From the sequence record MZ234021.1: a stretch of DNA of 40,233 nt. One strand, given 5' to 3'. The position numbers and the translations under genes are program-made. Source of the stretch: Escherichia phage vB_EcoP-101118UKE1. Positions 6,249 through 39,667 of the stretch are shown piece after piece (within the stretch, counting starts at the first letter, position 1; every line of letters starts with the position of its first letter). Under the pieces are notes generated by a model. That model searched no databases. It saw only the letters and a program-made list of their open reading frames with translations, and had not been told where the DNA came from.

Positions 6249-6686
6249 ATGCTCGAACTTTTACGTAAAGCAATCCCGTGGCTGGTTGCAGGACTCCTGT
6301 TCTGTTCTGGCTACTGGGTGGCAGACAATAAGTGGGAGGCGAAGGTAAACAATGAGTACATCACGAAACTTGAGGCACGAGAGAATCAACGGGCTGCTGT
6401 CCAAGGTGAAATCAACAAAGTGTCAGCCGAGTGGCAAGACAAGATGTCCGCGCTGGAAGGCTCTACTGATAGGATTATTGCTGACCTTAACCGCGATAAC
6501 AAGCGGCTGCGCGTCCGAGTCAACACCTCAGGTCTCACCGAGTCAGATGTCAGTCGATGCTTCCCTAATGGTAGAGTCGAACTACACCCAGAAACTTCTA
6601 AAAGTCTTATCCGATTAACTCAGGAGGCAGACCTTAAGGAGAAGGCGCTTCAGGACACAATAAGGAGGCTCCAAGGTGTTAAGTGA
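6249..6686 (+). CDS. Rz-like i-spanin (gp18.5-like)
   Basis: GAGGAGGG RBS 6237-6243 before ATG 6249 (first in-frame start in the ORF track is 6234); MLELLRKAIPWLVAGLLF N-terminal TM, DLNRDNKRLRVRV as in T7 gp18.5. Confidence 0.85.
   Translation: MLELLRKAIPWLVAGLLFCSGYWVADNKWEAKVNNEYITKLEARENQRAAVQGEINKVSAEWQDKMSALEGSTDRIIADLNRDNKRLRVRVNTSGLTESDVSRCFPNGRVELHPETSKSLIRLTQEADLKEKALQDTIRRLQGVK
6352..6618 (+). CDS. Rz1-like o-spanin lipoprotein (gp18.7-like), embedded in +1 frame of Rz gene
   Basis: 88-aa ORF inside the Rz gene; PRWKALLIGLLLTLTAITSGCASES signal/lipobox pattern matching T7 gp18.7. Confidence 0.7.
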   Translation: MSTSRNLRHERINGLLSKVKSTKCQPSGKTRCPRWKALLIGLLLTLTAITSGCASESTPQVSPSQMSVDASLMVESNYTQKLLKVLSD

Positions 6687-7113
6687 TTACTACAAAGTGG
6701 ACCCGGCTAGTCCATCCGGTCTGGTCTCCGTTAGGACTGGAAAGCCTGTGGGGACATTAAGTCGGATGGGATATTGGATAGTACAGACACGAAGTCTAGG
6801 CAGTAAGCGGGCCCATCGTGTGATATGGGAACTAACCAATGGTCCTATACCGCATGGTATGCAAATAGACCACATCGACAGGAACCCTAGCAATAATACC
6901 TTAAGTAACTTACGGCTCGTTACTGCCGCTGAAAACACTTGGAATACTGGTAGCCATTATGACTCTAAGACAGGAGTGAAGTGCGTTACCCGTCACCAGA
7001 ATGGTTATAGGATTCAGGTTAAACGCGGGAATGCCTATATGCGAACAACACGTCCCACTTTAGAGGAGGCTATCGCTGTCCGGGACCTAATGCTGGAGGG
7101 ACTATATGTCTAA
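6676..7113 (+). CDS. HNH homing endonuclease
   Basis: GTG start with AAGGAGG RBS 6662-6668; motif [20 protein letters not shown] (HNH) followed by AP2-like C-terminal region; overlaps Rz end and terminase start. Confidence 0.85.
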
Positions 7114-8872
7114 GAAAACACCCGCTGAAAGACAGGCAGAAATGGTCCAAAGGATGAGGGACGACTTCGTGTTCTTCATCTTCGTTCTCTGGAAAGCACT
7201 AAGTCTTCCGGTTCCAACCCGCTGCCAGATAGATATGTGTAAGAAGCTGGCTGCTGGGGATAATCGCCGCTTCATCCTTCAGGCGTTCCGTGGTATTGGC
7301 AAGTCGTTTTTGACCTGTGGCTTTGTGGTCTGGAAGCTATGGAATAACCCAGACTTGAAGTTCATGATTGTGTCGGCCTCAAAGGAGCGAGCCGATGCTA
7401 ACTCCATCTTCATCAAGCGAATCATCGACCTCATGCCTCAGCTTCAGGAACTCAAACCTAAGCAGGGACAGCGAGATGCGGTTATTAGCTTCGACGTGGG
7501 ACCTGCCAAGCCAGACCACTCACCTTCGGTTAAGTCCGTTGGTATCACTGGTCAGTTGACTGGTAGTCGTGCTGACACCCTGATTGCCGATGACGTGGAG
7601 GTTCCGAACAACTCAGCGACTCAGGCTGCACGAGACCGTCTATCAGAGCTTGTGAAAGAGTTCGACGCTATCCTGAAGCCGGGAGGTACGATCATCTATC
7701 TGGGTACTCCTCAGAACGAGATGACCCTGTACCGTGAGCTGGAAGGTCGTGGGTACACCACTACTATCTGGCCCGCTCGTTATCCACGCGACAGGAAGGA
7801 CTGGCAGTCTTACGGCGACCGTCTGGCTCCTATGCTTCAGGCAGAGCTGGAAGAGGACCCTGAGTCCTTCTACTGGCGTCCGACTGATGAAGTACGCTTC
7901 GATGATACGGACCTGAAGGAACGTGAGCTGTCCTACGGTAAAGCTGGCTTCGCTCTACAGTTCATGCTTAACCCGAACCTGAGTGATGCCGAGAAGTACC
8001 CTCTGAAGCTCCGTGACCTTATCGTAGCCGACTTGGACCCAGCGTCCAGCCCAATGGTCTACCAATGGTTGCCGAACCCTCAGAACAAGCGTGAGGACGT
8101 TCCTAACGTTGGACTCATGGGTGACTCGTACCACACGTATCAGACTGTAGGTTCTGCCTTCAGCTCATACACCCAGAAGATTCTGGTCATTGACCCTAGT
8201 GGTCGTGGTAAGGATGAAACTGGATATGTGGTACTGTACCAGCTCAACGGCTACATCTTCGCTATGGAAGTTGGTGGCATGCGTGGTGGTTATGAAGACT
8301 CTACGCTGGAAGCCTTGGCTAAGATTGGTCGTAAGTGGAGGGTCAACGAATACGTCATTGAGGGTAACTTCGGTGATGGTATGTACCTTGAGCTATTCAA
8401 GCCTGTAGCGGCCCGTATCCATCCTGCGGCTGTAACTGAAGTGAAGAGTAAGGGTCAGAAAGAACTACGCATCTGTGACGTTCTGGAGCCTATCATGGGG
8501 TCTCACAGACTTATCGTTAACGCTGCTGCTATCGTCCAAGACTACCAGACAGCCTCTGACAAGGATGGTGTTCGTAACCCTATCTACTCTCTATTCTATC
8601 AGATGACACGTATCTCTCGTGAGCGTGGAGCCTTGGCACACGATGACCGACTTGATGCGCTGGCTATCGGTGTACAGTTCTTCGTTGAGTCGATGGCTAA
8701 GGATGCCAACAAAGGCGAACGTGAAGTAACTGAGGAATGGCTGGAGGAACAGATGGAGAACCCACGGAAAGGCTTCGAGTCCATCCACACTGAGTTCTGG
8801 GACAATGGGGTCCGGGTAACTCACGATACGGACGACGAGCTTGGACTAGGGTCATACGTTACGTTCCACTAG
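7106..8872 (+). CDS. Terminase large subunit (gp19)
   Basis: 588 aa, near-colinear with T7 gp19 ([13 protein letters not shown] Walker [34 protein letters not shown]). Confidence 0.97.
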
Positions 8873-8881
8873 CTGAATGAA

Positions 8882-8930
8882 TAACTATAGGTGAAAGCTG
8901 CATGAATAAGCAGTTAGTAACCTATAGTTA
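8882..8930 (+). repeat. 11-bp perfect inverted repeat immediately after terminase gene
   Basis: TAACTATAGGT 8882-8892 and ACCTATAGTTA 8920-8930, 27-nt spacer. Confidence 0.6.
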
Positions 8931-8966
8931 CTACCAGTCTAACATACTGTTTTACAAGGAGTTTGG

Positions 8967-8989
8967 ACTTAACTATCACTATAGGGAAG
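8967..8989 (+). promoter_or_regulatory. Phage RNAP promoter (phiOR-type, right genome end), +1 at 8984
   Basis: ACTTAACTATCACTATA/GGGAAG. Confidence 0.8.
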
Positions 8990-9169
8990 ACCCCCGGTTA
9001 CTTATAGTATTACTGTAGTGAATATACATATGCAGACTTTATGCAAGACCTTAGGAGGCAGACTCCGAGTTCTTACCTAAGGCTTGCACCGATGGAAGGA
9101 GGGTGATATTAATCATAATCCCTCCAATACAGATAGTCACCGACCATAGATACAGGAGGTATGTAGCAT

Positions 9170-9328
9170 ATGGCAAAGACCAAAGCTGTACTTAAAGCTC
9201 TGGCGACCAATCGAGCTACATACAGGTTTCTTGCTGCTGTTCTACTTGCTGCTGGCGTTACTGCTGGAAGTCAGTGGGTCGGGTGGGTCGAGACTCTCGT
9301 ATGTTCTCTGGTCTCTCAGTGTAATTAA
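9170..9328 (+). CDS. Small putative membrane protein (52 aa) in gp19.5 position
   Basis: AGGAGG RBS 9154-9159, ATG 9170, hydrophobic FLAAVLLAAGVTAG segment; not in the ORF track (<60 aa). Confidence 0.4.
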   Translation: MAKTKAVLKALATNRATYRFLAAVLLAAGVTAGSQWVGWVETLVCSLVSQCN

Positions 9329-9361
9329 CGCAATCATGGTAACGATTCATGAGCGGAAGAC

Positions 9362-9404
9362 CTAAGGTCAGTACGTGGATAAAGACTCACTATACTGACC
9401 TTAG
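9362..9404 (+). repeat. 12-bp perfect inverted repeat enclosing a T7-type promoter-like motif, ~170 bp before the terminal repeat
   Basis: CTAAGGTCAGTA 9362-9373 and TACTGACCTTAG 9393-9404; spacer contains AAAGACTCACTATA. Confidence 0.6.
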
Positions 9405-9499
9405 CTACTGTAGTCAAGGACTTTAGGTAACACCATTCAGGCTCTCACCTCTGGTCTACCTACTGATTGGTTCACTGGTCGTCATCCGATGGTCTTAGA

Positions 9500-9521
9500 C
9501 CTACGGTCCTTGACCTACAGT
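9500..9521 (+). repeat. Short CCTAC(A/G)GT repeats flanking the terminal repeat (right-end side)
   Basis: CCTACGGT 9500-9507 and CCTACAGT 9514-9521. Confidence 0.5.
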
Positions 9522-9574
9522 AGCTGGTTCCTAAGGAGGGACGATGAGTTTTGGACCAAAAGTTTGAGACCACA

Positions 9575-9755
9575 TCTCACAGTTCAAGAACCTCAAGTCT
9601 CCCCCATAGGCCCTCTTTCAGTCCAGACCAAAGGCCCTACCCCAGTCTATCATAAGGTTAGACCGATGGTCAAGACTTCAGGTCAACGATAGGTTGTGGC
9701 TATGGCTTAGGGAAGGACGATAGGTTGGGACTATGGGTCTGTCTCTGAGTCTCTA
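9575..9755 (+). repeat. Probable terminal repeat (single collapsed copy) containing the physical genome ends; boundaries approximate
   Basis: Begins TCTCACAG...CCCCCATAGG like the T7 left terminus; ends near GTCTCTGAGTCTCT followed by ATCTGTA (T7 has ATCTGTT concatemer-junction pause motif). Confidence 0.4.
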
Positions 9756-9770
9756 TCTGTATAACCATAG

Positions 9771-9861
9771 GTCCTACAACCTACAGTCCTACAACCTACA
9801 GTCTAACTAACCTACAGTATCAACCATAAGACACCAACACCTACGGTCATAGACCCACAGT
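9771..9861 (+). repeat. Array of CCTAC(A/G)GT-type direct repeats flanking the terminal repeat (left-end side), includes a 16-bp tandem duplication
   Basis: GTCCTACAACCTACAG twice in tandem (9771-9802), CCTACAGT 9811-9818, CCTACGGT 9840-9847, CCCACAGT 9854-9861; analogous to T7 CCTAAAG arrays. Confidence 0.6.
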
Positions 9862-9972
9862 TAATAGACACAAAGCTATAGACTTAAGGTCTTAAACATG
9901 TTAGTCAAAGACTATATCCTATTACACCATGGGGCCGACGATAGCTTAATCAATATTATTTAAGATTACCTA

Positions 9973-10002
9973 TTGACTACAGGTCCAGACTATGGCTTAA
10001 TA
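9973..10002 (+). promoter_or_regulatory. Putative host sigma70 early promoter (A1-like)
   Basis: TTGACT 9973-9978, 17-18 nt spacer, weak -10 (CTTAAT/TTAATA); aligns with T7 A1 region as I recall it. Confidence 0.4.
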
Positions 10003-10113
10003 GCTTCCGTCAACACGACACGGCAACAACCGGATAGTGAAGACGCCGGGTCATCCCGGTTAAGTAGACAGCCTGATAAGTCATACGAACAACAGGCAGA
10101 TGACAGAAAGTAG

Positions 10114-10143
10114 TTGACAAGATGTACCGACTTAAAGTAGTAT
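10114..10143 (+). promoter_or_regulatory. Putative host sigma70 early promoter (A2/A3-like)
   Basis: TTGACA 10114-10119, 18-nt spacer, TAGTAT 10138-10143; flanking sequence resembles T7 A3 region. Confidence 0.5.
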
Positions 10144-10272
10144 GTACCACATCAACACGAAACAACGGTGACGACCAACACTGAAACGGTCTACCTGAAG
10201 TCCTCTGACTGAAGGGAATGCTCTTTAACAATCTGGATAAACTCTTAATGTGCGCCGATAGCGACTAACTAC

Positions 10273-10302
10273 AGGGCCTTTGAGTCTACATCTGAAGGCC
10301 CT
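10273..10302 (+). promoter_or_regulatory. Putative RNase III processing hairpin (R0.3-like) before first early gene
   Basis: AGGGCCTT 10273-10280 / AAGGCCCT 10295-10302 perfect stem; followed by the GGCCCTGACTGATAGTCACTAAC box. Confidence 0.5.
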
Positions 10303-10335
10303 GACTGATAGTCACTAACTTAAAGGATGGACACT

Positions 10336-10581
10336 ATGAAACACTTAAGCACAATCACTAATCGCAATGAAGTATTCGTGAACACTAAAGGTTATGCGTG
10401 GATTCAGCTTAAAGAGATGACAGGAGCGCGTCACCGTGTGGTAGTTCGCAAGGTATCAAGCAAGCAGTTCAGCAACTACAGCGTCGATACTGTGCGTATA
10501 GACAACGAGACATACCTGATAGACTCGCAGATAACCGTGAGTCCTACAGTGGGCGTCTCAGCTCCTTATTTCGCTAACTGA
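10336..10581 (+). CDS. Hypothetical early protein (first gene after the early promoters)
   Basis: ORF 10327..10581; second ATG 10336 has better spacing from AAAGGATGG; preceded by an RNase III-type hairpin; no recognisable homolog. Confidence 0.5.
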   Translation: MKHLSTITNRNEVFVNTKGYAWIQLKEMTGARHRVVVRKVSSKQFSNYSVDTVRIDNETYLIDSQITVSPTVGVSAPYFAN

Positions 10582-10594
10582 GAGTGATTAACTA

Positions 10595-10620
10595 CAGGTC
10601 GTTAGACTGATAGCGGCCTG
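10595..10620 (+). promoter_or_regulatory. Putative RNase III processing hairpin before Ocr gene
   Basis: CAGGTC / GGCCTG stem; followed by GGCCTGACTGATAGTCACTAAC box 10615-10636. Confidence 0.45.
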
Positions 10621-10664
10621 ACTGATAGTCACTAACACATAATTAACTTTGAGAGGATATAACT

Positions 10665-11168
10665 ATGGAACGTAATGCTAACGCATACTATGAGCTGCTG
10701 GCTGCAACCGTTGAGGCATTTATCGAGCGTATTCAGTGCGACCACCTGACTAAAGATGACGACTACAGCGCTGCGCTGCATGAGGTCGTAGACGGTCAGG
10801 TTCCACACTATTACCACGAGATTTTCATGGTGATGGCTGCTGATGGTATAGACAACGAGTTCGAAGACTCTGGGATGATACCTGAAACCAAGGACGTAAC
10901 GCGTATCCTACAAGCTCGCATCTATGAGGCACTTTATAACGACGTGTCTAATAGCTTGGATGTAGTCTGGTTTGAGGATGAAGAGGCAGACGAAGAGGAT
11001 GAATATTGGGTAGTTGACGCTAAAACAGGCGCAATAATTGTGCAAGCTGTAGCTCTTGAGGTCGCTACTGCATGTGCCAAGGTTAACTATGCGGCAGGTC
11101 GCCACCTTCAGGTGGAAGACATCAATGATAACGTAGTGTTTGACCCTGCTGCTGAGGACTGCGAGTGA
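10665..11168 (+). CDS. Ocr-like anti-restriction DNA-mimic protein (gp0.3) with ~50-aa C-terminal extension
   Basis: GAGAGGA RBS; VPHYYHEIFMVMAADGIDNEFEDSGMIPETKDVTRILQARIYE closely matches T7 Ocr; acidic tract then extra 50 aa absent from 117-aa T7 Ocr. Confidence 0.85.
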   Translation: MERNANAYYELLAATVEAFIERIQCDHLTKDDDYSAALHEVVDGQVPHYYHEIFMVMAADGIDNEFEDSGMIPETKDVTRILQARIYEALYNDVSNSLDVVWFEDEEADEEDEYWVVDAKTGAIIVQAVALEVATACAKVNYAAGRHLQVEDINDNVVFDPAAEDCE

Positions 11169-11324
11169 TGGTAACTTATGGCCTCTGCCAGCACCACGTC
11201 ACTAACGCCCGGCTTATGGTCAAGACCGGGCAGTTAGACCACGATTGGGCTATGCGTCTCTTGAAAGTGGTCTACAGGAGACGCAAGCGTATACACGACA
11301 GTTTACACGCTAAGTGACAGACTA

Positions 11325-11348
11325 CAGGTCATCAATGCTGGTGGCCTG
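11325..11348 (+). promoter_or_regulatory. Putative RNase III processing hairpin before 11381 gene
   Basis: CAGGTCAT 11325-11332 / GTGGCCTG 11341-11348; followed by GGCCTGACTGATAGTCATTAAC box 11343-11364. Confidence 0.45.
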
Positions 11349-11380
11349 ACTGATAGTCATTAACAACTGAGAGGGAAGAT

Positions 11381-11608
11381 ATGAACACAATCACTGGTGC
11401 CATAACCAAAGGTTTTCGAGCAATTTTCGGTGAAACGCAAGAAGTATGCACCAATCATAAATTCGTACTTTCTTGCGTAGCAGGTGACGAGTTTGACGGG
11501 TTCGATAAACTGGTGGTTTGCGACCATTGCGGACAAGAGGCTATCCAACACTCAAACGGTAAATTTGAATTAATAGACGATAGCCTTACAGAAGGAGACG
11601 GCGAGTAA
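11381..11608 (+). CDS. Hypothetical small early protein with four Cys (possible Zn-ribbon), acidic C-terminus
   Basis: 75 aa, GAGGGAAG RBS 11371-11378; cysteines at residues 23, 32, 47 and 50 (including CDHC). Confidence 0.55.
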   Translation: MNTITGAITKGFRAIFGETQEVCTNHKFVLSCVAGDEFDGFDKLVVCDHCGQEAIQHSNGKFELIDDSLTEGDGE

Positions 11609-11681
11609 CCTAAATAAACAGGAGAGAACCAAATCATAGCTTGACCATAACACTGACGTGATGGTACTGAGTGATAGACGA

Positions 11682-11707
11682 GAGGTCATCGACTGATAGG
11701 TGGCCTC
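11682..11707 (+). promoter_or_regulatory. Putative RNase III processing hairpin
   Basis: GAGGTCAT 11682-11689 / GTGGCCTC 11700-11707, loop CGACTGATAG. Confidence 0.4.
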
Positions 11708-11740
11708 AAAGATTACCACTTACATTGATAGGAGTTAACT

Positions 11741-11845
11741 ATGAGCACTGCAATCATCTGGACTATCTCAGGCTTCGTAGCGTGGGGAATGTTTACTCTA
11801 GTCTGCAAACTACCGGTCCTTACTCAACTGTTATGGGGCTTATGA
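11741..11845 (+). CDS. Small hydrophobic peptide (34 aa)
   Basis: AGGAG RBS 11730-11734, ATG 11741; MSTAIIWTISGFVAWGMFTLVC...; stop overlaps next start. Confidence 0.35.
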   Translation: MSTAIIWTISGFVAWGMFTLVCKLPVLTQLLWGL

Positions 11846-11961
11846 CTATGAGTATCGCACTATTGATAGCCATAGGCTATGGACTTATCGCCTACGTGCT
11901 GGTGAGAGACATCAACAAAGCGCGTAAAGTCTACAAATTCAAAATATGTACGTCTGGGTAG
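11842..11961 (+). CDS. Small transmembrane peptide (39 aa)
   Basis: ATGA overlap with preceding small ORF; MTMSIALLIAIGYGLIAYVLV TM helix then basic tail; is the 3' part of the 96-aa ORF in the track. Confidence 0.35.
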   Translation: MTMSIALLIAIGYGLIAYVLVRDINKARKVYKFKICTSG

Positions 11962-12045
11962 CTGGACTGTACGTCAACCTAACGGACGATTCATGCGTAA
12001 CTTAGCGAACGTCTGGGATATAGCAACACTTGGGAGCAAACTGTA

Positions 12046-12372
12046 ATGAACAAGTCATACGGGATTAATCTGGTACACTCTATGGACGCAGACATGCAAA
12101 TGTTAAGCCTACTGGCTACCGGGTATCGTCACGGAACGTCAAGTCACTCCGCACGTCAACAGCAGGAGCGGGACCGGGTACTGCAAGCAAGACTCCGGGC
12201 TGAGGGCCATAAGTCCGAACTAATGTGTCTGGCGTATGGTGGACGACCAATCACTGACGATGGTAAACTTTTAGTCTCAGGCTGGAAGGCGATAGACCAA
12301 CGGTCAACCATCAAGCACACGACTCATGGTGACTTCAGTCATCTCCACGCTAACCCGCTGATATGCAAGTAA
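12046..12372 (+). CDS. Hypothetical early protein (108 aa)
   Basis: GGGAG RBS 12032-12036; occupies the position of T7 gene 0.7 but has no kinase motifs. Confidence 0.45.
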   Translation: MNKSYGINLVHSMDADMQMLSLLATGYRHGTSSHSARQQQERDRVLQARLRAEGHKSELMCLAYGGRPITDDGKLLVSGWKAIDQRSTIKHTTHGDFSHLHANPLICK

Positions 12373-12377
12373 TTCTG

Positions 12378-12400
12378 ACTTAACTATCACTATAGGACTC
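12378..12400 (+). promoter_or_regulatory. Phage RNAP promoter immediately upstream of the RNAP gene, +1 at 12395
   Basis: ACTTAACTATCACTATA/GGACTC, 75 nt before RNAP ATG. Confidence 0.7.
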
Positions 12401-12469
12401 AAGGTCTAAGACTCCAAGTGAAAGACCAAAGAGACTTTAAGTGAAAGACTAATAACAAGGACTTTAAGT

Positions 12470-15151: not shown

Positions 15152-15166
15152 CAACAGGAGAAGTAT

Positions 15167-20889: not shown

Positions 20890-22593
<1,704 letters not shown>

Positions 22594-22637
22594 CCTAGAG
22601 TCACGACTTGAAGAGTCACTTAAGAGGAGAGTAACTC

Positions 22638-22802
22638 ATGCTACGAAAACTTAAAGCTCGCTACCATCGGTTCATGTACAAATGGTGGAGCGATGAAGCA
22701 ACCTTCCTGTCCAACATTCTGGGAGACCAGAGGTTCGACTCTAAGGCATGGAAGAAAGCTAACCGTAAGTTCATGTACCACTTCTTACGTACAGACTTCT
22801 AG
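22638..22802 (+). CDS. Hypothetical small protein (54 aa)
   Basis: AGAGGAGAG RBS 22622-22630; not in ORF track. Confidence 0.5.
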   Translation: MLRKLKARYHRFMYKWWSDEATFLSNILGDQRFDSKAWKKANRKFMYHFLRTDF

Positions 22803-22865: not shown

Positions 22866-23267
22866 ATGTTTGATTGCATTGAGTGGACCGGGTGCCGAGA
22901 CCGTTTCGGATACGGTATGCGAAAGGTCAACGGGAAAGTCCGTAGACTGCATCTAATAGCCTTCGAGGAGGCGAACGGTCCGATACCTGAAGGAATGGTC
23001 GTGCGACATAAGTGTGACAACCCATCGTGTTACAACCCAGCACACTTAGAGCTGGGGACACGGGCTGACAACAATCGTGATAGAGACGTAAGAGGTCGAA
23101 CAGCTAAGGGAGTGAGGCATTGGAGTTCTAGGCTTACACCTGAAATAATACAAGAGGCCAAGGTGCTCTACGCAGGAGGTGGATGGACTCACCGCTCCCT
23201 AGGTGAGAAGTATGGAGTGGGACACCGCACGATAGCTAGAGCAATTGGAGGAGAAACATGGACTTAA
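22866..23267 (+). CDS. HNH homing endonuclease (paralog of 39218..39667)
   Basis: ACGGAGGA RBS before ATG 22866; RHKCDNPSCYNPAHLELGTRADN motif. Confidence 0.8.
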   Translation: MFDCIEWTGCRDRFGYGMRKVNGKVRRLHLIAFEEANGPIPEGMVVRHKCDNPSCYNPAHLELGTRADNNRDRDVRGRTAKGVRHWSSRLTPEIIQEAKVLYAGGGWTHRSLGEKYGVGHRTIARAIGGETWT

Positions 23268-25426
23268 GTAACGTATACGGGTCTGACATCGAGACCAACG
23301 GTCTCCTTGATACAGTCTCCCAGTTTCACTGTGGGGTCCTGATTAACGCCGAGTCGAATGAGACCCTTAAGTATGGGGTAGCTCCGATGGTCGGTATCGT
23401 CGGTGGCTTCAAAGAGTATGTTCATAAAGTGGAAGAGATTGCCGCATCGCCTGATGGTATGCTTGTATTCCACAACGGTATCAACTATGACGTACCGGCT
23501 ATCGACAAGCTGAAGCGTCTGTACTTTGGGAAGCGTTTTAACTTCCCGAAACACAAGATGGTTGATACCTTGGTGCTGGGCCGCTTGATGTATCCAAACA
23601 TTAAGTTCTCAGACATGGGCGCTGTGAAAGCTGGTCGTCTGCCACCTCAGATGATGGGACGACAGTCTCTTGAGGCTTGGGGCTATCGTCTCGGTGAGAT
23701 GAAAGGTGAATACAAACACGATTATGTTGCCAAATGCAAGGCTGAAGGTATCGAATATAAGGCTGGGGACGAATGGTTGTTCCCGTCTCAGGAGATGCTG
23801 GACTATAACGTTCAAGACGTTGTGGTCACACTGGCGTTGTTCAAGAAGTTCCTGACTGACAAGTATTACTTCCAGTCTGAACAGTTCGCTTTCGACCAGA
23901 TTTATGCGTTGCGTCTGGAACATGATGCTGCGTGGACCTGTGCGAAGATGGAACGTAACGGCTATCCGATGAACACCGAGATGGTCGAAGGCTTATATCG
24001 TGAACTCACCGTCAAACGTGCAGAGTTGTTGGACAAGCTGCGTTCGACTTTCGGTAGCTGGTATGCACCAAAGGGAGGCAAGGAGTTCTTCAAGCACCCA
24101 CGGACAGGCAAGGACCTTCCGAAGTATCCGCGAGTCGTGTATCCTAAGGTCGGGTCAGTATTCAAGAAGCCGAAGAACAAAGCTCAACGATTAGGTCTGG
24201 AGCCTTGCGAGTTCGACTCACGAGACACGATGGAAGGAGCACCGTTCACACCTATCACTTACGTTGAGTTTAATCCGGGAAGCGGAGACCACTTAGCGAA
24301 AGTCCTGATGGAGCGTGGCTGGGAGCCTGTGGACTTCACTGACACCGGGAAACCTGTAGTCGATGACGAGACGTTGGAACACGTTAAGTTACCAGACGCA
24401 GAGGCTCAGGCTTGCGTAGAGCTGGTCCGTGAGTATCTGGTAGTCCAGAAGCGCATCGGTCAGGCGGCTGAAGGTAAGAACGCATGGTTGAAACTTGTAG
24501 GTCCAGACGGACGTATGCACGGCTCAATAAACCCATGCGGGGCAGTAACCGGACGTGCGACCCATAGTTCACCAAACATGGCTCAGGTCCCGGCTAACGG
24601 TGCTCCATATGGTGAGACTTGCCGTGGTGCTTTCGGTGCAGCGTGGAACAAGAAGGACGGTAAGCCAGACCCTTGGATTCAAGTTGGTGTGGATGCCTCA
24701 GGTCTTGAGCTTCGTTGTCTTGGGAACAGAGCGGCTCCGTTTGATGGTGGTGCATATGCGAAGACTGTGGTAGAAGGTGACATCCACTGGGCCAACGCAG
24801 TAAACGCTGGGTTAGCACCTAACGTCCAACGCGATAAGTCTAACCACGACCATGAGGCTTTCCGTAACAACGCTAAGACGTTCATCTACGCGTTCCTGTA
24901 TGGTGCAGGGGCCGCTAAGATTGGACTGATAGTAGGCGGTGGTAAGAAGGAAGGTTCAGCGCTCATGAAGAAATTCATTGAGGGTACACCAGCTATCAAG
25001 GACCTCAGGGAAGCTGTAAGTAATACGTTAATCTCAGACTCTAAGTGGGTGGACGGAGAGAACATCGTTAAATGGAAACGTCGCTGGCTGAAAGGTCTGG
25101 ATGGTCGTCGTATTCACATCCGGTCTCCACACTCAGCACTTAACGCCCTACTTCAGGGGGACGGTGCGGTTGTCTGTAAGCACTGGATGGTACTGACTGA
25201 GAAGAAACTTGAAGAGGCTGGTTACGGTAACGGATGGGACGGCGACTTTGCGCTAATGGCTTGGATTCACGATGAATTGCAGATAGCGTGCCGTACTCAG
25301 GAGATAGCAGAAGATGTCGTCCGTATTGCTCAAGAGGCGATGCGCGAGGTCGGACGCTTCTATAACTTCAAGTGTGAACTTGATACGGAGGGTAAGATTG
25401 GACCAACGTGGAAAGAGTGTCATTGA
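23258..25426 (+). CDS. DNA polymerase (gp5)
   Basis: 722 aa, colinear with T7 gp5 (SDIE exo motif, AVTGRATH, NAKTFIYAFLYGAG, HDE). Confidence 0.97.
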   Translation: MDLSNVYGSDIETNGLLDTVSQFHCGVLINAESNETLKYGVAPMVGIVGGFKEYVHKVEEIAASPDGMLVFHNGINYDVPAIDKLKRLYFGKRFNFPKHKMVDTLVLGRLMYPNIKFSDMGAVKAGRLPPQMMGRQSLEAWGYRLGEMKGEYKHDYVAKCKAEGIEYKAGDEWLFPSQEMLDYNVQDVVVTLALFKKFLTDKYYFQSEQFAFDQIYALRLEHDAAWTCAKMERNGYPMNTEMVEGLYRELTVKRAELLDKLRSTFGSWYAPKGGKEFFKHPRTGKDLPKYPRVVYPKVGSVFKKPKNKAQRLGLEPCEFDSRDTMEGAPFTPITYVEFNPGSGDHLAKVLMERGWEPVDFTDTGKPVVDDETLEHVKLPDAEAQACVELVREYLVVQKRIGQAAEGKNAWLKLVGPDGRMHGSINPCGAVTGRATHSSPNMAQVPANGAPYGETCRGAFGAAWNKKDGKPDPWIQVGVDASGLELRCLGNRAAPFDGGAYAKTVVEGDIHWANAVNAGLAPNVQRDKSNHDHEAFRNNAKTFIYAFLYGAGAAKIGLIVGGGKKEGSALMKKFIEGTPAIKDLREAVSNTLISDSKWVDGENIVKWKRRWLKGLDGRRIHIRSPHSALNALLQGDGAVVCKHWMVLTEKKLEEAGYGNGWDGDFALMAWIHDELQIACRTQEIAEDVVRIAQEAMREVGRFYNFKCELDTEGKIGPTWKECH

Positions 25427-25457
25427 CCCTCGAACCCAGACCCTACGCTTCCACACC

Positions 25458-25739
25458 ATGCCTACCGGATGTATCGTCTGCGTGTCCCACAAGAGGAACC
25501 AAGATGGGTACTTCCGGTACTCCATGGGAAGCTACAGGAAGGGCAACAAGTTCGCCTTCATGTTCCACCGATGGGTGTGGGAGCAGAAGCGCGGACCTAT
25601 ACCAAATGGCTACGAAATAGACCATTTGTGCTTGAACCGTGGGTGCTGCAACATAGAGCATCTACAGTGTATTCCAAAACGCGAACACGTCATTAAGACG
25701 AACCGTGAGCGCAAACTTGTTAAGAAGGAGTGTCACTAA
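25458..25739 (+). CDS. HNH homing endonuclease (gp5.3 position)
   Basis: EIDHLCLNRGCCNIEHL motif; start set at first ATG after polymerase stop; no clear SD, start uncertain. Confidence 0.7.
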   Translation: MPTGCIVCVSHKRNQDGYFRYSMGSYRKGNKFAFMFHRWVWEQKRGPIPNGYEIDHLCLNRGCCNIEHLQCIPKREHVIKTNRERKLVKKECH

Positions 25740-31041: not shown

Positions 31042-31044
31042 TTG

Positions 31045-32482: not shown

Positions 32483-32488
32483 TTGAAA

Positions 32489-32526: not shown

Positions 32527-32540
32527 CTTAAGGAGGGACT

Positions 32541-32630: not shown

Positions 32631-32641
32631 GGAGTAAACCT

Positions 32642-33435: not shown

Positions 33436-33444
33436 GGAGAGCCT

Positions 33445-35802
33445 ATGCCATTAATTACGCAAAGCATAAAAAATCTTAAAGGTGGTATTAGCCAACAGCC
33501 TGACATCCTGAGGTTCTCAGACCAAGGCGAGGCTCAAGTTAACTGCTGGTCATCCGAGAGTGATGGCCTCCAGAAGCGTCCACCTACAGTCTTCAAGCGA
33601 CGTCTTAACATCGACGTTGGGAGCAACCCTAAGTTCCACCTGATTAACCGTGATGAGCAGGAGCAGTATTACATCGTGTTCAACGGGTCCAACATTCAGG
33701 TAGTCGACTTGAGCGGTAATCAGTACTCAGTTTCAGGTGCGGTAGACTACGTTAAGTCGTCCAACCCGCGAGATGACATCCGTGTCGTTACAGTTGCAGA
33801 CTATACGTTCGTCGTTAACCGTAAGGTTGTCGTTAAAGGTGGAAGCGATAAGTCACACTCTGGTTATAATCGTAAAGCACGCGCTTTAATTAACCTGCGT
33901 GGTGGACAGTATGGTCGCACCCTTAAGGTAGGAATCAACGGAGGCGTTAAGGTTTCGCATAAGTTGCCAGCAGGTAATGATGCCGAGAATGACCCTCCTA
34001 AGGTTGATGCTCAGGCTATCGGTGCAGCTCTGAGAGACCTTCTTGTTGCTGCTTACCCTACCTTCACGTTCGACCTTGGGTCTGGATTCCTGTTAATCAC
34101 TGCCCCTTCAGGGACTGACATTAACTCAGTGGAGACGGAGGATGGCTACGCTAACCAGCTAATCAGCCCAGTACTCGACACGGTGCAAACAATCTCTAAG
34201 CTGCCTCTTGCAGCTCCAAATGGGTACATCATTAAGATTCAAGGTGAGACCAACAGTAGCGCCGATGAGTATTACGTGATGTATGACTCCAACACTAAGA
34301 CGTGGAAGGAGACAGTAGAGCCGGGAGTGGTCACTGGGTTCGATAACACCACAATGCCACATGCTCTGGTTAGACAATCTGACGGCTCCTTTGAGTTCAA
34401 GACTCTGGACTGGTCTAAGCGGGGTGCTGGTAATGATGACACAAACCCTATGCCTAGCTTCGTGGATGCTACGATTAACGATGTGTTCTTCTACAGGAAC
34501 AGGCTAGGGTTCTTGTCAGGAGAGAACGTAATCATGAGCCGTTCAGCCAGCTACTTTGCGTTCTTCCCTAAGAGTGTGGCGACATTGAGTGATGATGACC
34601 CTATTGACGTAGCTGTAAGTCACCCTAGAATCTCAATACTTAAGTATGCCGTTCCGTTTAGCGAGCAGCTACTACTTTGGTCAGATGAGGTGCAGTTCGT
34701 GATGACAAGCTCGGGGGTCCTTACCTCGAAGTCTATCCAGCTTGATGTAGGCTCAGAGTTTGCCTTAGAAGATAACGCCAGACCGTTCGCTGTAGGACGC
34801 TCAGTCTTCTTCTCAGCGCCTCGTGGGTCATTCACCAGTATTAAGCGATACTTCGCTGTAGCAGATGTGTCTGACGTGAAGGATGCCGATGATACCACTG
34901 GTCACGTACTGTCCTATATCCCTAACGGGGTGTTTGACATTCAAGGTACAGGGACTGAGAACTACATCTGCGTCAACTCCACAGGTGCATGCAACCGAAT
35001 CTACATCTACAAGTTCTTGTTTAAGGACGGCGTACAACTTCAAGCCTCTTGGTCGCACTGGGAGTTCCCTAAAGCTGATAAGATTCTGGCGTCTGCGTCG
35101 ATTGGCTCTACCATGTTCATTGTTCGTCAGCACCAAGGGGGTGTGGACATTGAGCACCTTAAGTTCATCAAGGAGGCAACCGACTTTCCATTAGAGCCGT
35201 ATAGACTCCACGTTGACTCTAAGGTGTCTATGGTAATACCAATTGGCTCATACAACGCTGACACCTATAAGACTACGGTTGACATTGGTTCTGCTTATGG
35301 TGGAAACGCTCCGTCTCCCGGTAGGTACTATCTGATTGACAGTCAGGGTGCCTACGTGGACCTTGGTGAATTGACCGACATCTCAACTGTGGCTGTACTC
35401 AATGGTGATTGGTCAGGACGTACAGTGTTCATCGGACGGTCTTATCTGATGTCCTACAAGTTCTCACGGTTCCTGATTAAGATTGAAGACGAGAGTGGCA
35501 CTCAGTCTGAAGACACTGGTCGTCTACAGCTTCGTCGTGCTTGGGTAAACTACAAGGACACTGGCGCTCTTAGACTCATTGTCAGAAACGGTGAGCGGGA
35601 GTTCGTGAACACCTTTAATGGGTACACCCTTGGTCAGCAAACCATAGGGACTACCAACATTGGGGATGGTCAGTATCGATTCGCTATGAATGGCAACGCA
35701 TTAACCACGAGTCTAACCTTAGAGTCCGACTATCCTACCCCGGTGTCCATCGTTGGGTGTGGCTGGGAGGCGTCATACGCTAAGAAAGCTCGTTCCGTCT
35801 AA
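33445..35802 (+). CDS. Tail tubular protein B (gp12)
   Basis: 785 aa; SIKNLKGGISQQPDILR, GFLSGENVIMSR, DDDPIDVAVS, LRRAWVNY, IVGCGWEA match T7 gp12. Confidence 0.95.
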   Translation: MPLITQSIKNLKGGISQQPDILRFSDQGEAQVNCWSSESDGLQKRPPTVFKRRLNIDVGSNPKFHLINRDEQEQYYIVFNGSNIQVVDLSGNQYSVSGAVDYVKSSNPRDDIRVVTVADYTFVVNRKVVVKGGSDKSHSGYNRKARALINLRGGQYGRTLKVGINGGVKVSHKLPAGNDAENDPPKVDAQAIGAALRDLLVAAYPTFTFDLGSGFLLITAPSGTDINSVETEDGYANQLISPVLDTVQTISKLPLAAPNGYIIKIQGETNSSADEYYVMYDSNTKTWKETVEPGVVTGFDNTTMPHALVRQSDGSFEFKTLDWSKRGAGNDDTNPMPSFVDATINDVFFYRNRLGFLSGENVIMSRSASYFAFFPKSVATLSDDDPIDVAVSHPRISILKYAVPFSEQLLLWSDEVQFVMTSSGVLTSKSIQLDVGSEFALEDNARPFAVGRSVFFSAPRGSFTSIKRYFAVADVSDVKDADDTTGHVLSYIPNGVFDIQGTGTENYICVNSTGACNRIYIYKFLFKDGVQLQASWSHWEFPKADKILASASIGSTMFIVRQHQGGVDIEHLKFIKEATDFPLEPYRLHVDSKVSMVIPIGSYNADTYKTTVDIGSAYGGNAPSPGRYYLIDSQGAYVDLGELTDISTVAVLNGDWSGRTVFIGRSYLMSYKFSRFLIKIEDESGTQSEDTGRLQLRRAWVNYKDTGALRLIVRNGEREFVNTFNGYTLGQQTIGTTNIGDGQYRFAMNGNALTTSLTLESDYPTPVSIVGCGWEASYAKKARSV

Positions 35803-35809
35803 CTTATTG

Positions 35810-35859
35810 AAGGGCCTATAGATTTACCTTAACTATCACTATAGGGACTATAGGCCCTT
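35810..35859 (+). repeat. 12-bp perfect inverted repeat bracketing the phi13-type promoter
   Basis: AAGGGCCTATAG 35810-35821 and CTATAGGCCCTT 35848-35859. Confidence 0.6.
35827..35849 (+). promoter_or_regulatory. Phage RNAP promoter (phi13-type), +1 at 35844
   Basis: CCTTAACTATCACTATA/GGGACT, flanked by a 12-bp inverted repeat. Confidence 0.85.
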
Positions 35860-35878
35860 AAGGTTATAAGGAGACTTT

Positions 35879-36349
35879 ATGTATATTCGCAAGGCTACGG
35901 AACAGGATGTCCACTACTTTCTGTGGCATCTTTCAGCAGATGATGTTAATGAGTGCAAAGCAAACTATGGGTCAACCGTTGGTCTCTCTGAAAGACTGCT
36001 TAAGCATCTATCTCCGTCATCTGTGGTTTTAACGAATGGTGTAGGCGAAGTGTTTGCCTATGGTGGAAACCAAGGGGATAACGTATGGTTCTTGACTTCC
36101 GGTCTTGTCCATAAGCTGAGACCTAAAGAGAAGCGGGAGTTCATAAAGCGTATCTCTGAGTACAGGGACTTAATGTTAGACCAATACGGGACCATCTGGA
36201 ACTACGTGTGGTCAGGCAATAAGTCTCACATTAAATTCTTGAAGTTGCTTGGGGCTAAATTCCATGATGATTGGACTGTCAGCCCGGTAACTGGTGAGCG
36301 TTTTCAATTATTCACTATCTCTAAGGAGGACGTATGTGTGAACCCGTAA
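35879..36349 (+). CDS. Internal virion protein gp13-like
   Basis: AAGGAG RBS; position downstream of phi13-type promoter. Confidence 0.7.
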   Translation: MYIRKATEQDVHYFLWHLSADDVNECKANYGSTVGLSERLLKHLSPSSVVLTNGVGEVFAYGGNQGDNVWFLTSGLVHKLRPKEKREFIKRISEYRDLMLDQYGTIWNYVWSGNKSHIKFLKLLGAKFHDDWTVSPVTGERFQLFTISKEDVCVNP

Positions 36350-36921
36350 GTATCGGCATGGGTATCATGGCTGTAGCCGGGGCCACTATGTCCGCATCCC
36401 AGCAGGCCAAGGCCGAAGGTGCAGCAATTGACGCTCAGAACCGACAGGCTCAGGAAATGGTTAAGCAGATGAACTACTCTGACGCCAACCTGAGGATGCA
36501 GGAGCGAGACCTGAAGGAGCAGCAGATGGCTGAACTGACAGAGACCACGCTCAACGGTATCCGAAATCAGGGTATGGTACGAGCTGCGGTGGCTGAGTCC
36601 GGTCTGGAAGGTAACTCTATGGACAGGATTGAACGTCAGGTCGAAGGGGATACAGTCAAGGAGCGAGCAGGGATTACAGAAAGTTACAACCGCGACTATG
36701 CGGCTATCTTCGGGAACCGTATCGCCAACATTGAGAACACCAAGTCTGCTATCCGTGGTCATGGTAAAATTATCAAGACCAGCCCACTGGCTCATGCACT
36801 TAATGTTGCAAGCGCCGGGATGCAGGGGTACGCTGCTGGTAAGTCAATCTCTGGGGCATCAAGCTCTGGTGGTGCTGCACCGATTAGTGCTGCTAAAGGC
36901 ACACCTACAGGTCATAGCTAA
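36334..36921 (+). CDS. Internal virion protein B (gp14)
   Basis: 195 aa; MC.. start, NGIRNQGMVRAAVAESGLEGNSMDRIER resembles T7 gp14. Confidence 0.85.
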   Translation: MCEPVSIGMGIMAVAGATMSASQQAKAEGAAIDAQNRQAQEMVKQMNYSDANLRMQERDLKEQQMAELTETTLNGIRNQGMVRAAVAESGLEGNSMDRIERQVEGDTVKERAGITESYNRDYAAIFGNRIANIENTKSAIRGHGKIIKTSPLAHALNVASAGMQGYAAGKSISGASSSGGAAPISAAKGTPTGHS

Positions 36922-36932
36922 GAGGAGGACTA

Positions 36933-39215
36933 ATGGCTAGTAATATTGAATCAGCTCTGGCTAATCGGACTATGGGTCGTGGCAGGGCTCCGGGTAAAAC
37001 TATCGCCGTCAACTATCAAGCAGCCAGCGTTCAGGCTCCAACTGGTGACTCAGGTCTGGCTCGGGCGCTAACCAACTTCGTTGAGTCTGGTACTGGATTA
37101 TACAAGCAGTTCAAAGACGAGGAGAAGACACGGGCCGACGAGCGGTCTAACGAGATTATCCGTAAGCTTACACCTCAGCAAAGACGTGAGGCTATCCAGA
37201 ACGGTACATTGCTGTATCAGGATGACCCTTACGCTATGGAAGCACTTCGAGTCAAGACGGGCCGTAACGCTGCCTTTGCGGTTGATGACGAGATTAACGT
37301 TAAGATTCAGAACGGTGAGTTCCGTACACGTCAGGACATGGAAGAGTATCGCCACCAGAGACTTCAGGACGCCGCTAAGTCCTATGCTGAAGAGGCGGGT
37401 ATTAACCCTACCGACGAGTTCTTCCAGCGCGGGTTCAACGATAACATCACAGACCGAAACATCGCTATCTATGGGTCTTTCAATAAGTATTTCAGCAAGC
37501 AGTCTGAAGAGACAGCAATGTTGAACACTCGTATTGAGATGAACTCGTTCCTTAACGATGGGGACCTGATGCGTTCGCCTGATTCTGGAAAGACCTTCAT
37601 GGCCTACCTTCGGGATGGACTGACGACTGCTGCTATCCCTTCGGACCAGCGAGCACGAGAGGTAATCACCCAGACGGTCCGTGACGCAATCCAGAAGTCA
37701 GGAGGCTCAAACTTCCTACAGCAAGTCCGTGGTGAGCGTATCAACCTTAACGGTGTGGATGCTACAGTCGAAGAGATTGTAGGACCAGATGTCTTCAACG
37801 CTGCTATTGTAGAGGCCCAAGGTACTGAGTACAAGCTGGTGGCTAAGTATCAGGAAGACTTGTCGTTAGGCGTTCAGTCTGCGATTCTTCAGGATGACCC
37901 AACCATCGGTCTGGCCCAGATTCAGAAACTCAAGGAGCAGAACAACCTGCTTCAACCGGGTGAAGAACTCACGCCTCAGCGTCAGATGCTTATTAATGCC
38001 GAAGCCAGCTTACTGGAAGCGGTCAAGCGTAAGTCTGCTGAACAAGCGAAGGAGAACACTAAGTTAATCCAGACCCAGAACAAGCAACTGGTCATCGACC
38101 AAGTGTATCAGCGACGTCTGGCTGGTGACAACGTATCCACCAACTATGAGGACCTTCCGGTCTCTGACGCTACAGGGGAGTTCAAGCGTTCAGACATGAA
38201 CAACTATGCGTCTTCCAAGCTACAGCAGATTGACCAGATGGACATCCCTGAGGCTGCTAAGGACGCTCAGAAGGTGGCATTGTTAAGAGCTGACACTAAT
38301 AACGGTCCGTTCCGTAATGCCTTCCAGACGCTGACTCAGGACGCTGCTGGTGAGTGGCAAGCTGCGGTCATCCGTGGACAGTACGACCCAGATAAGATGC
38401 AACGCTTCGAGTCTCTTCGTCGTGCCTACACTCAGGACCCTTCAAGTTTCGCTGCTCTGTATCCTGACCAAGCTCAGTTGTTCTCTACATTCGACCAGAT
38501 GGACAAAATGGGTCTAGACCCTCAGACGATGATTGAAGCTGATAAGCAAGCTGCAAGTCAAAGCCGTGAGATGCGCATGGAGTCAGACAAGGCGTGGCAG
38601 GAGTTGAAGAACGACTCCAAGAACACCCAGTTGTCTCGCCTCCCAACGTCTCTGGACTCAAGTGCTCGTAAGGTCTGGGACTCATGGTACTATCGTACAG
38701 GTAACGCTGACGCTGCAACGCAGCAGACTCAACGCTGGCTGAATGAGAACACCGTAACGTTCCAGTCTGAAGGTTCTGACGGTAAGTCCATCGGCATGGT
38801 GTCCAAACACCAGCTTATGGTCGGGGATAACCCAGAGTCGTGGCAGGTGGGTCGAGACATTATAGACACCGCTCGTCAGCAGCTCATTAAGGCCAACCCT
38901 TGGGTAGTGAACTCTCAGTTGTCCGTTGTTGAACAGAACGGCTCTATCTTCCTCCAAGACGCTACGGGGACTATTCGTATTCGATACGATAAAGAACTTG
39001 TAGGTAAACTCTACCGCGAACAACAGCAGAAGGTACAAGATGCCGCATATGCTCAGGCAGAACGTGACGCTAACAAGCGAGCGCGTATCGTCGGGACTAA
39101 AGCTGCTGGTGACAAACGTCGAGCTGACCGAGAGGCCAACATCGAGAAGCGCGGTGGGATGTACAATGACGTCTCACTGGAGGGTATCGCAAACGCACTA
39201 ATCGGTAAGGAGTAA
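36933..39215 (+). CDS. Internal virion protein C (gp15)
   Basis: 760 aa, AGAGGAGG RBS; size and position as T7 gp15. Confidence 0.9.
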   Translation: MASNIESALANRTMGRGRAPGKTIAVNYQAASVQAPTGDSGLARALTNFVESGTGLYKQFKDEEKTRADERSNEIIRKLTPQQRREAIQNGTLLYQDDPYAMEALRVKTGRNAAFAVDDEINVKIQNGEFRTRQDMEEYRHQRLQDAAKSYAEEAGINPTDEFFQRGFNDNITDRNIAIYGSFNKYFSKQSEETAMLNTRIEMNSFLNDGDLMRSPDSGKTFMAYLRDGLTTAAIPSDQRAREVITQTVRDAIQKSGGSNFLQQVRGERINLNGVDATVEEIVGPDVFNAAIVEAQGTEYKLVAKYQEDLSLGVQSAILQDDPTIGLAQIQKLKEQNNLLQPGEELTPQRQMLINAEASLLEAVKRKSAEQAKENTKLIQTQNKQLVIDQVYQRRLAGDNVSTNYEDLPVSDATGEFKRSDMNNYASSKLQQIDQMDIPEAAKDAQKVALLRADTNNGPFRNAFQTLTQDAAGEWQAAVIRGQYDPDKMQRFESLRRAYTQDPSSFAALYPDQAQLFSTFDQMDKMGLDPQTMIEADKQAASQSREMRMESDKAWQELKNDSKNTQLSRLPTSLDSSARKVWDSWYYRTGNADAATQQTQRWLNENTVTFQSEGSDGKSIGMVSKHQLMVGDNPESWQVGRDIIDTARQQLIKANPWVVNSQLSVVEQNGSIFLQDATGTIRIRYDKELVGKLYREQQQKVQDAAYAQAERDANKRARIVGTKAAGDKRRADREANIEKRGGMYNDVSLEGIANALIGKE

Positions 39216-39217
39216 AC

Positions 39218-39667
39218 ATGAAGAACGGGACAGCCAGTGAGAGACTGGCAGAACTGTCAGCAGGTGAAGAGTCTGGCTGTATCCGATTCACAGGCCACTT
39301 AGACGGAGAAGGATACGGAAGGATAATGGTCAACAGGGTCAAATACAGAGCGCATAGACTTGCTTACGAGCTTGCTAACGGTCCTATACCAGATGGGTAC
39401 GTTGTTCGCCATAAGTGCGACAACCCGTCCTGTATAAACCCAAGACACCTTGAAGTCGGTACCCAAGCTGATAACATAAAGGATAAGGTGACTAGAGGTC
39501 GCCAAGCGTTAGGATGCTTCATAGGATCGTCTAAGCTCACTGAGGAAAGTGTGCGTGATATAAGGTCCAGCAACCTAAAGGTTTCACTTTTGGCTGAACG
39601 CTATGGAGTGAGTACGGTTTCTATTAGAAATATCTTGAGGAGAAAGACATGGCGACACGTGGAGTAA
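39218..39667 (+). CDS. HNH homing endonuclease inserted between gp15 and gp16 (paralog of 22866..23267)
   Basis: TAAGGAG RBS; RHKCDNPSCINPRHLEVGTQADN motif; 3' end overlaps gp16 start. Confidence 0.85.
   Translation: MKNGTASERLAELSAGEESGCIRFTGHLDGEGYGRIMVNRVKYRAHRLAYELANGPIPDGYVVRHKCDNPSCINPRHLEVGTQADNIKDKVTRGRQALGCFIGSSKLTEESVRDIRSSNLKVSLLAERYGVSTVSIRNILRRKTWRHVE

Follow-up and report, generated by a model that had tools for sequence, protein, structure and literature searches.

Why should a phage genome carry four genes for small HNH nucleases, each set against the end of an essential gene? The question is raised by Escherichia phage vB_EcoP-101118UKE1 (sequence record MZ234021.1), whose 40,233-bp sequence is the whole stretch of DNA that was analysed (hereafter the window). 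A sequence-only reading of it had marked HNH-motif open reading frames (ORFs) at the Rz/large terminase junction, at the start of the DNA polymerase gene (gene 5), directly behind that gene, and at the gene 15/16 junction; we refer to these as HNH-A, HNH-B, HNH-C, and HNH-D, respectively. They are very probably free-standing HNH (His-Me finger, HNH_3) homing endonuclease genes (HEGs), that is, selfish cassettes occupying one site each at an essential-gene boundary. Selfish insertion was also the suggestion of the earlier reading, and it is the best account of the nuclease family, the patchy presence among relatives, the linked flanking alleles, and the captured translation signals described below.

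All four predicted ORFs are present on the + strand (Table 1) and match both HNH_3 (PF13392; 74.1, 63.1, 69.6, and 61.4 bits for HNH-A to HNH-D, E 7e-21 to 6e-17, against a gathering score of 24.8 bits) and PHROG HNH-endonuclease families. Loss of the catalytic His or Asn would have spoken against this reading, but in an alignment of the four proteins the catalytic His and the Asn that follows it (H66 and N70, HNH-A numbering) were invariant, and the last metal-ligand column read N/N/H/N. A profile built from the four proteins found no fifth HNH ORF in a six-frame translation of the window. In a PDB sequence search, HNH-D gave only insignificant MarA-type helix-turn-helix matches, and HNH-B had no significant match. 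Ratios of nonsynonymous to synonymous substitution (dN/dS, by the Nei-Gojobori method), calculated for each HNH gene against orthologues at the same site, were 0.09 for HNH-A, 0.05–0.15 for HNH-B, 0.07–0.22 for HNH-C, and 0.12–0.44 for HNH-D, indicating that the proteins are under purifying selection and are not decaying.

The window holds a complete Kayfunavirus genome, from a K1F/T7-like podophage, with the gene order of T7. Gene 16 (~1,296 codons) runs across the window ends, beginning at 39649 and resuming at 1–3303, which makes the window a circular permutation of the whole genome. The sequence in GenBank record MZ234009 is likewise cut at that internal Met of gp16, and the gp16 annotated there is truncated. 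The closest GenBank relative is Escherichia phage vB_EcoP-22664BS1 (species Kayfunavirus LM33P1), with 96.5–98.3% identity across 96–97% of the window. For comparison we used 15 Kayfunavirus genomes (L001–L015) that were 91–97% identical to the window overall. Each junction was scored as occupied or empty from the distance between conserved anchors on both sides, and flanks were compared as identity per 100 bp between the window and each of the 15 genomes.

Clean empty sites were found for the cassettes, and the insertion boundaries could be resolved to base level. Site B had anchor distances of 638–646 bp when occupied and 246–250 bp when empty, with no other states; the HNH-B insert is 389 bp and occurs in 5/15 relatives (L002, L005, L006, L009, and L011). 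Site D was equally simple (650–653 bp occupied, 221–222 bp empty, no other states), with a 429-bp insert in 6/15 relatives (L002, L003, L005, L006, L008, and L012). At site C the distance was 482–488 bp in the five occupied genomes (L001 and L003–L006) and 169 bp in the two empty ones (L002 and L012), relative to which the HNH-C insert is 313 bp, and there were several other states. Site A measured 638 bp when occupied (L002, L004, and L008), 208 or 224 bp when empty, and 580 or ~1020 bp in three genomes with different inserts. The sequence-only reading had held that identical gene content in the closest relatives would leave no signal of mobility; instead, all four genes are presence/absence polymorphic. 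They assort independently, none of the 15 genomes carries all four, and the nearest relative (97.1% identity) has HNH-C alone, while the most distant, Citrobacter phage CR44b (91.1%), has HNH-A, HNH-B, and HNH-D but not HNH-C.

The cassettes are near-identical across otherwise diverged genomes. In CR44b, the proteins 3.8A, 7.7B, and 7.7C, each annotated as a "predicted homing endonuclease", show 95.9%, 99.2%, and 96.0% identity to HNH-A, HNH-B, and HNH-D, respectively. The DNA of HNH-B is 98–100% identical to that of CR44b and EPr2 (L005), while the 100-bp bin at 22566, ~200–300 bp upstream, is only 60–74% identical, which points to recent lateral movement of the cassette. The interval 22566–22665 itself, in the gene 4.x region after the primase/helicase gene, is 100% identical in L001 and only 60–78% identical in the other 14/15 relatives, and it forms a mosaic patch of its own with no link to HNH-B. 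Outside the comparison set, tblastn against GenBank phages placed HNH-A at the same junction in 13 records with at least 95% identity and in a further 41 at 60–80%. The corresponding searches with at least 80% identity gave 12 records for HNH-B, ~100 for HNH-C, and 16 for HNH-D, the last with six more at 56–59%. Two of the junctions had been called unusual in the sequence-only reading, a description that does not hold: in dozens of GenBank phages, the same or related HNH genes occupy the Rz/terminase and gp15/gp16 junctions, and CR44b already annotates both 3.8A (Rz/terminase) and 7.7C (gp15/gp16) as predicted homing endonucleases.

The gene coordinates also bear out the earlier observation that the ORFs overlap or abut essential neighbors, at all four junctions. 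HNH-A, HNH-B, and HNH-D share one layout, in which the cassette begins where the downstream gene ancestrally began, after that gene's Shine-Dalgarno sequence (SD), and supplies a new SD and an overlapping ATG. At empty B sites the polymerase start reads GGAGGATTAACCATGTTTGACCTTAAG, i.e. GGAGGATTAACC-ATG-TTT-GAC-CTT; at the occupied site HNH-B opens with the same SD followed by ATGTTTGA (ATG-TTT-GA), and the new polymerase SD, GGAGGAG, sits within HNH-B. HNH-D likewise uses AAGGAG, the gp16 SD of empty relatives, and gp16 restarts in the last codons of the cassette. HNH-A opens with a GTG that overlaps the Rz stop; in empty relatives, this position (AAGGAGG-N7-GTG) is where the terminase begins. 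At the other end, the TAA of HNH-A and the ATG of the terminase overlap, and the terminase now begins 8 nt before the HNH-A stop. The layout at site C is the mirror image, with the last codons of the polymerase (KECH and stop) duplicated: HNH-C ends in the duplicate of the polymerase C-terminus (KECH*), ancestrally ...GAGTGTCACTAATG, which overlaps the start of gene 5.5 (TAATG).

None of 11 matches to a CR44b-type promoter motif in the window lay directly upstream of a cassette. The closest upstream matches were at 3299 for HNH-A, 20820 for HNH-B and HNH-C, and 35827 for HNH-D. Lacking a promoter of their own directly upstream, the cassettes appear to ride on neighboring transcripts and captured translation signals. 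The genes that host them are uninterrupted in the window, and none of the four is embedded in an intron or intein. The possibility that the window cassettes are intron-borne was rejected, as no intron or other RNA family in the window gave an Rfam match at E ≤ 0.01 and the group I signal described below is confined to relatives L008–L010 (tested on L009).

Capture of the start codon by HNH-A, HNH-B, and HNH-D might be more than an accident of insertion. We consider it possible, though rather doubtful, that it is an adaptive retention device and that the imported gene ends are also a main driver of essential-gene mosaicism in Kayfunavirus. If it were such a device, translation of the terminase, the polymerase, and gp16 would depend on the 3' end of a cassette, and only a base-perfect excision would be viable.

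The genes next to the cassettes carry divergent alleles that are linked to cassette presence to different degrees. Linkage was perfect at site D, where the first ~250–300 nt of gene 16 were 74% identical to the window in 9/9 genomes without HNH-D and 87–100% identical in 6/6 genomes with it. The gp15 flank was 97–100% identical in 14/15 genomes and lower (73–88%) only in L012, which carries HNH-D; with high identity in nearly all genomes, the gp15 side does not separate occupied from empty sites. At site B, the recoded 5' patch of gene 5 (Table 1) is likely an altered target site, which would tie it to target immunity. Linkage was likewise perfect at site C, where the last 300 nt of gene 5 were 92–100% identical in the five genomes with HNH-C and 65–84% identical in the other ten. 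The terminase 5' end fell into classes of 76–78% and 91–100% identity among the 15 genomes, with partial linkage to HNH-A. Linked divergent flanks are what break-induced gene conversion should leave behind when a resistant target allele is co-converted. Such conversion with co-converted flanks is established for the free-standing endonucleases of T4 (PMC2790892, PMC2988022), and a position beside essential genes is a general pattern for HEGs (PMC10448857).

The observations suggest the following course of events. The cassettes, without promoters of their own, would be transcribed together with their neighbors (HNH-B and HNH-C from 20820, HNH-A from 3299, and HNH-D from 35827). In a mixed infection with a cassette-less relative, the enzyme would nick or cut the empty allele in or beside the adjacent essential gene, with predicted targets in the 5' ends of genes 19, 5, and 16 for HNH-A, HNH-B, and HNH-D and in the 3' end of gene 5 near AWIH|DE for HNH-C. 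Phage recombination would then repair the break from the cassette-bearing genome, copying the cassette together with a stretch of the flanking gene, and that stretch would render the new allele resistant to cutting.

Table 1 Coordinates of the HNH cassettes, their neighboring genes, and linked tracts in the window
Feature	Coordinates	Strand	Description
Rz-like spanin gene 18.5	6234..6686	+	3' end holds SD AAGGAGG, the terminase SD in empty-site relatives and the HNH-A SD here
HNH-A	6676..7113	+	145 amino acids (aa); T7 gp3.8 / CR44b 3.8A type; between Rz and large terminase
Large terminase gene 19	7106..8872	+	ATG within last 8 nt of HNH-A; SD GGAGGG from HNH-A 3' end
HNH-B	22866..23267	+	133 aa; C-terminal helix-turn-helix; gp7.7 type (CR44b 7.7B); at gene 5 start codon
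DNA polymerase gene 5	23258..25426	+	Between HNH-B and HNH-C; ATG overlaps HNH-B stop (ATGGACTTAA)
Recoded gene 5 5' patch	23258..23283	+	~24 nt, HNH-B-linked; MFDLKSIWGSD (empty sites) replaced by MDLSNVYGSD, from the occupied/empty alignment
Divergent gene 5 3' tract	25124..25423	+	Last ~300 nt of gene 5; co-segregates with HNH-C
HNH-C	25458..25739	+	93 aa; orthologue of T3 gene 5.3; directly 3' of DNA polymerase
Internal virion protein gene 15	36933..39215	+	3' end holds SD now used by HNH-D
HNH-D	39218..39667	+	149 aa; C-terminal helix-turn-helix; gp7.7 type (CR44b 7.7C); exactly between gp15 stop and gp16 start
Gene 16 5' part	39649..40233, then 1-3303	+	ATG overlaps HNH-D end; SD GAGGAG within HNH-D

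HNH-C belongs to a lineage that has reportedly been characterized by experiment. It is 86% identical over 90 aa to T3 gp5.3, and both genes lie between gene 5 and gene 5.5. T7 gene 5.3, which was also considered as a homologue, was dismissed because T7 gp5.3 is unrelated. Work by Bonocora and Shub from 2009 reportedly showed T3 gp5.3 to be a free-standing homing endonuclease that spreads into empty sites, and the enzyme is said to cut the polymerase gene at the site of intron insertion. Three relatives (L008–L010) encode a 131-aa HNH protein, 51% identical to HNH-C, within an insert that splits the polymerase gene at AWVH|DE. The insert of L009 (19295–19892), the one tested, matched the group I intron family RF00028 with 35.7 bits (E 4.7e-7), which is below the 50-bit gathering score; the same putative intron has been noted in K1F (PMC4925675). 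The matching position in the window is ~25270 (AWIH|DE), inside the divergent tract linked to HNH-C, and the gene is uninterrupted there. By analogy with T3 gp5.3, for which PMC10448857 cites the 2009 work, this tract is the predicted target and co-conversion region of HNH-C. In L011 and L013, the post-polymerase site (window 25427–25738) holds a 58-aa ORF (MEGVSLM...EQEVKDLMRSAWWCGHEES...) with no Pfam match in place of an HNH gene.

HNH-A raises a different question, as it lies directly upstream of the large terminase gene and overlaps it translationally. It could in principle be a packaging cofactor of the terminase (HK97 gp74 type) and not selfish at all, since HNH proteins beside terminase genes assist cos cleavage (PMC10448857, PMC3592412), and its dN/dS of 0.09 against CR44b would suit such a role. 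However, HNH-A is missing from 12/15 relatives, including both nearest (96–97% identity), where Rz directly overlaps the terminase gene, and so it is not a conserved part of the packaging module. The slot also holds other cargo in three relatives, a different HNH gene in L011 and an unrelated ORF in L005 and L009. Terminase-associated HNH enzymes feature a [CxxC]2 zinc site (PMC3592412), whereas HNH-A has HNH_3 as its sole Pfam match and one Cys in 145 residues, hence no such site. Finally, the relatives are T7-like phages with annotated direct terminal repeats, not cos ends. The sequence-only reading had offered a terminase association only as an alternative for HNH-A and was right to keep it secondary; on distribution, motif, and packaging type we reject it as highly improbable.

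The varied contents of this slot indicate that the Rz/terminase junction is a general insertion hot spot, and not one for nucleases alone. The unrelated ORF of L005 (EPr2) and L009 (CLBP1) lies in the slot at window ~6686–7106, encodes 261–263 aa, and has no Pfam match at E ≤ 0.01; in L005 it spans ~37331–38115, of which GenBank annotates 37492–38115. An AP2-like DNA-binding domain was suspected by eye at the C-terminus of HNH-A and was discarded, with no Pfam match even at E ≤ 1; a weak AP2 match (E 0.014) occurred only in the different HNH protein at the same site in L011. The spanin gene (window 6208–6607) and the terminase 5' end (7108–7307) each show two deep allele families, of ~65–79% and 85–100% identity, partly in step with HNH-A.

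The relationship between HNH-B and HNH-D was less close than had been supposed. The sequence-only reading took them for close paralogs arising from recent duplication or intragenomic homing, because both contain the core GPIP.G.VVRHKCDNPSC.NP.HLE.GT.ADN. The shared motif is indeed present in both proteins, but the recent origin is not upheld. Over 129 residues HNH-B and HNH-D share 47% identity, which is no more than either shares with the gp7.7 of T7 or CR44b (41–47%). Within the DNA encoding the 32-residue core, 68/96 nt match (71%), the same codon is used at 12/26 conserved residues, the longest exact run is 9 nt, and synonymous sites are saturated. Each protein also has its own orthologues, 83–99% identical, at its own site in other phages. 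The protein identity, the core DNA identity, and the short longest run rule out a recent duplication. HNH-B and HNH-D are, judging from their sequences, old paralogs whose core likeness reflects active-site conservation.

Several points weigh against reading the four ORFs as active selfish cassettes. Cleavage, the exact target sites, and current activity are properties that we infer for HNH-A to HNH-D. The 15 genomes are related to each other, and the perfect associations are thus non-independent events. The divergent terminase 5' allele also occurs in five genomes that lack HNH-A (L006, L010, L012, L014, and L015), which makes that linkage incomplete: either the cassette was lost there, or the resistant allele exists without it. 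Purifying selection is also compatible with a domesticated role. HNH-C, moreover, has no recognizable SD, and the T3-type gene begins with 11 codons that HNH-C lacks. A GGAGGT SD and these codons are present in T3, L007, L014, and L015; HNH-C instead starts at an internal Met, and a 31-nt spacer after the polymerase stop (window 25424–25460 region) replaces what is missing. This allele without an SD is common to the window, L001, and L005 at the post-polymerase junction. HNH-C may therefore be poorly expressed or heading for decay; its allele would be either attenuated or decaying, or else translated by re-initiation.

The truncated start of HNH-C also favors a view of one or more of the ORFs, HNH-C above all, as inactive relics that persist since precise deletion would harm overlapping essential signals. 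Since HNH-A, HNH-B, and HNH-D do hold the SD and start context for an essential gene each, few deletions would leave the phage viable. Yet the ORFs are intact, their catalytic residues are conserved, and dN/dS values of 0.05–0.25 in most orthologue pairs (within which all those for HNH-C fall) indicate that selection is still acting, and we consider relics unlikely. The same purifying selection, acting on all four genes, could instead mean that they are kept mainly for the benefit of the phage, either as weapons against co-infecting relatives (marker exclusion, interference) or as domesticated nucleases or DNA-binding regulators. Translational coupling to essential genes would fit this, and exclusion would favor the linked flanking alleles; HEG domestication has been discussed, and bioinformatics alone cannot tell it from active homing (PMC10448857). 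Each gene is nonetheless dispensable in close, viable relatives, and the distribution, patchy and independent of combination, is as expected from selfish spread and loss. As this alternative shares the mechanism of cutting a rival allele, the two accounts differ in emphasis more than in mechanism. We judge a main role in phage benefit improbable and retain selfish homing endonuclease genes as the preferred interpretation.

Two further features of these genomes lie outside the HNH sites. The C-terminal two-thirds (window 4007–5607) of the tail-fibre/tailspike gene (3368–5548) is common to only ~4/15 relatives, the usual K1F-like swap of a host-range module. L003 (vB_EcoP-U8) has an annotated tRNA-Thr at 36843–36921, between the lysozyme region and the primase gene, and ARAGORN found no tRNA in the window.

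For annotation, the four genes are best labeled as 3.8A-, 7.7B-, T3 5.3-, and 7.7C-type homing endonucleases (HNH-A to HNH-D, in order) and not as terminase cofactors or recent duplicates. They explain essentially all of the ~1.1 kb size difference between the window and its nearest relative, and they flag the ends of genes 5, 16, and 19 as recombination hot spots. For these coliphages, which are candidates for therapy, such hot spots distort phylogenies as well as typing by similarity. The clean pairs of occupied and empty sites are ready substrates for mapping the targets of the uncharacterized gp3.8- and gp7.7-type enzymes.

In comparison with known systems, the four are unremarkable as free-standing HNH homing endonuclease genes, their kinds being already known and annotated in Kayfunavirus. 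The capture of start codons and the linked tracts at gene ends merit a record but will not surprise a specialist. One close precedent is CR44b (HG818823), where 3.8A, 7.7B, and 7.7C, the counterparts of HNH-A, HNH-B, and HNH-D, fill the same three junctions and overlap genes 19, 5, and 16 in the same way. It differs in that its post-polymerase site is empty and it has two HNH genes not found in the window, 7.7 (ahead of the portal gene) and 3.8B (behind the terminase gene); its genome announcement does not discuss the endonucleases. More distantly, HNH-A is 48% identical to T7 gp3.8 over 61 aa and HNH-B is ~46% identical to T7 gp7.7, and CR44b gp7.7, which has the same layout of HNH plus helix-turn-helix, shares 41% identity with HNH-B and 46% with HNH-D. 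The T7 genes differ in position, 3.8 preceding gene 4 and 7.7 preceding gene 8, whereas the window sites precede genes 19, 5, and 16.

HNH-C closely resembles T3 gp5.3 in sequence and occupies the same slot, and the lineage also connects it to the HNH protein in the polymerase-gene group I intron of Kayfunavirus relatives. Unlike the T3 gene, it lacks the SD and first codons, and its left junction duplicates polymerase C-terminal codons. An intron-borne relative of T3 gp5.3, I-TslI of phages PhiI and W31, has reportedly been described by Bonocora and Shub (2004, 2009). The only solved structure matched by HNH-A was that of I-HmuI (PDB 1U3E), an HNH nicking endonuclease of phage SPO1; the alignment over the DH...N...N motif, which places D65-H66, N78, and N87, was weak (E 0.063, 16 bits), and I-HmuI differs in being intron-encoded.

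T4 enzymes belong to other nuclease subfamilies and another host phage, and cleavage, homing, and exclusion have been demonstrated for them, whereas we infer these for HNH-A to HNH-D. The likeness to HEGs of T4 (segG, mobE), ICP1, and other phages lies in intergenic cassettes beside essential genes with a patchy distribution (PMC2790892, PMC2988022, PMC10448857). As in T4-type HEGs, where the cleavage site is in the neighboring gene and flanking markers are co-converted, the targets predicted for all four cassettes lie in adjacent genes. An "HEG island" that moves the whole polymerase gene between HNH-B and HNH-C was considered and rejected, as genomes sharing both cassettes showed no block of raised identity across gene 5. 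In this respect the locus differs from HEG islands, and gene 5, flanked by a cassette at each end, resembles the pattern in which HEGs bracket essential genes.

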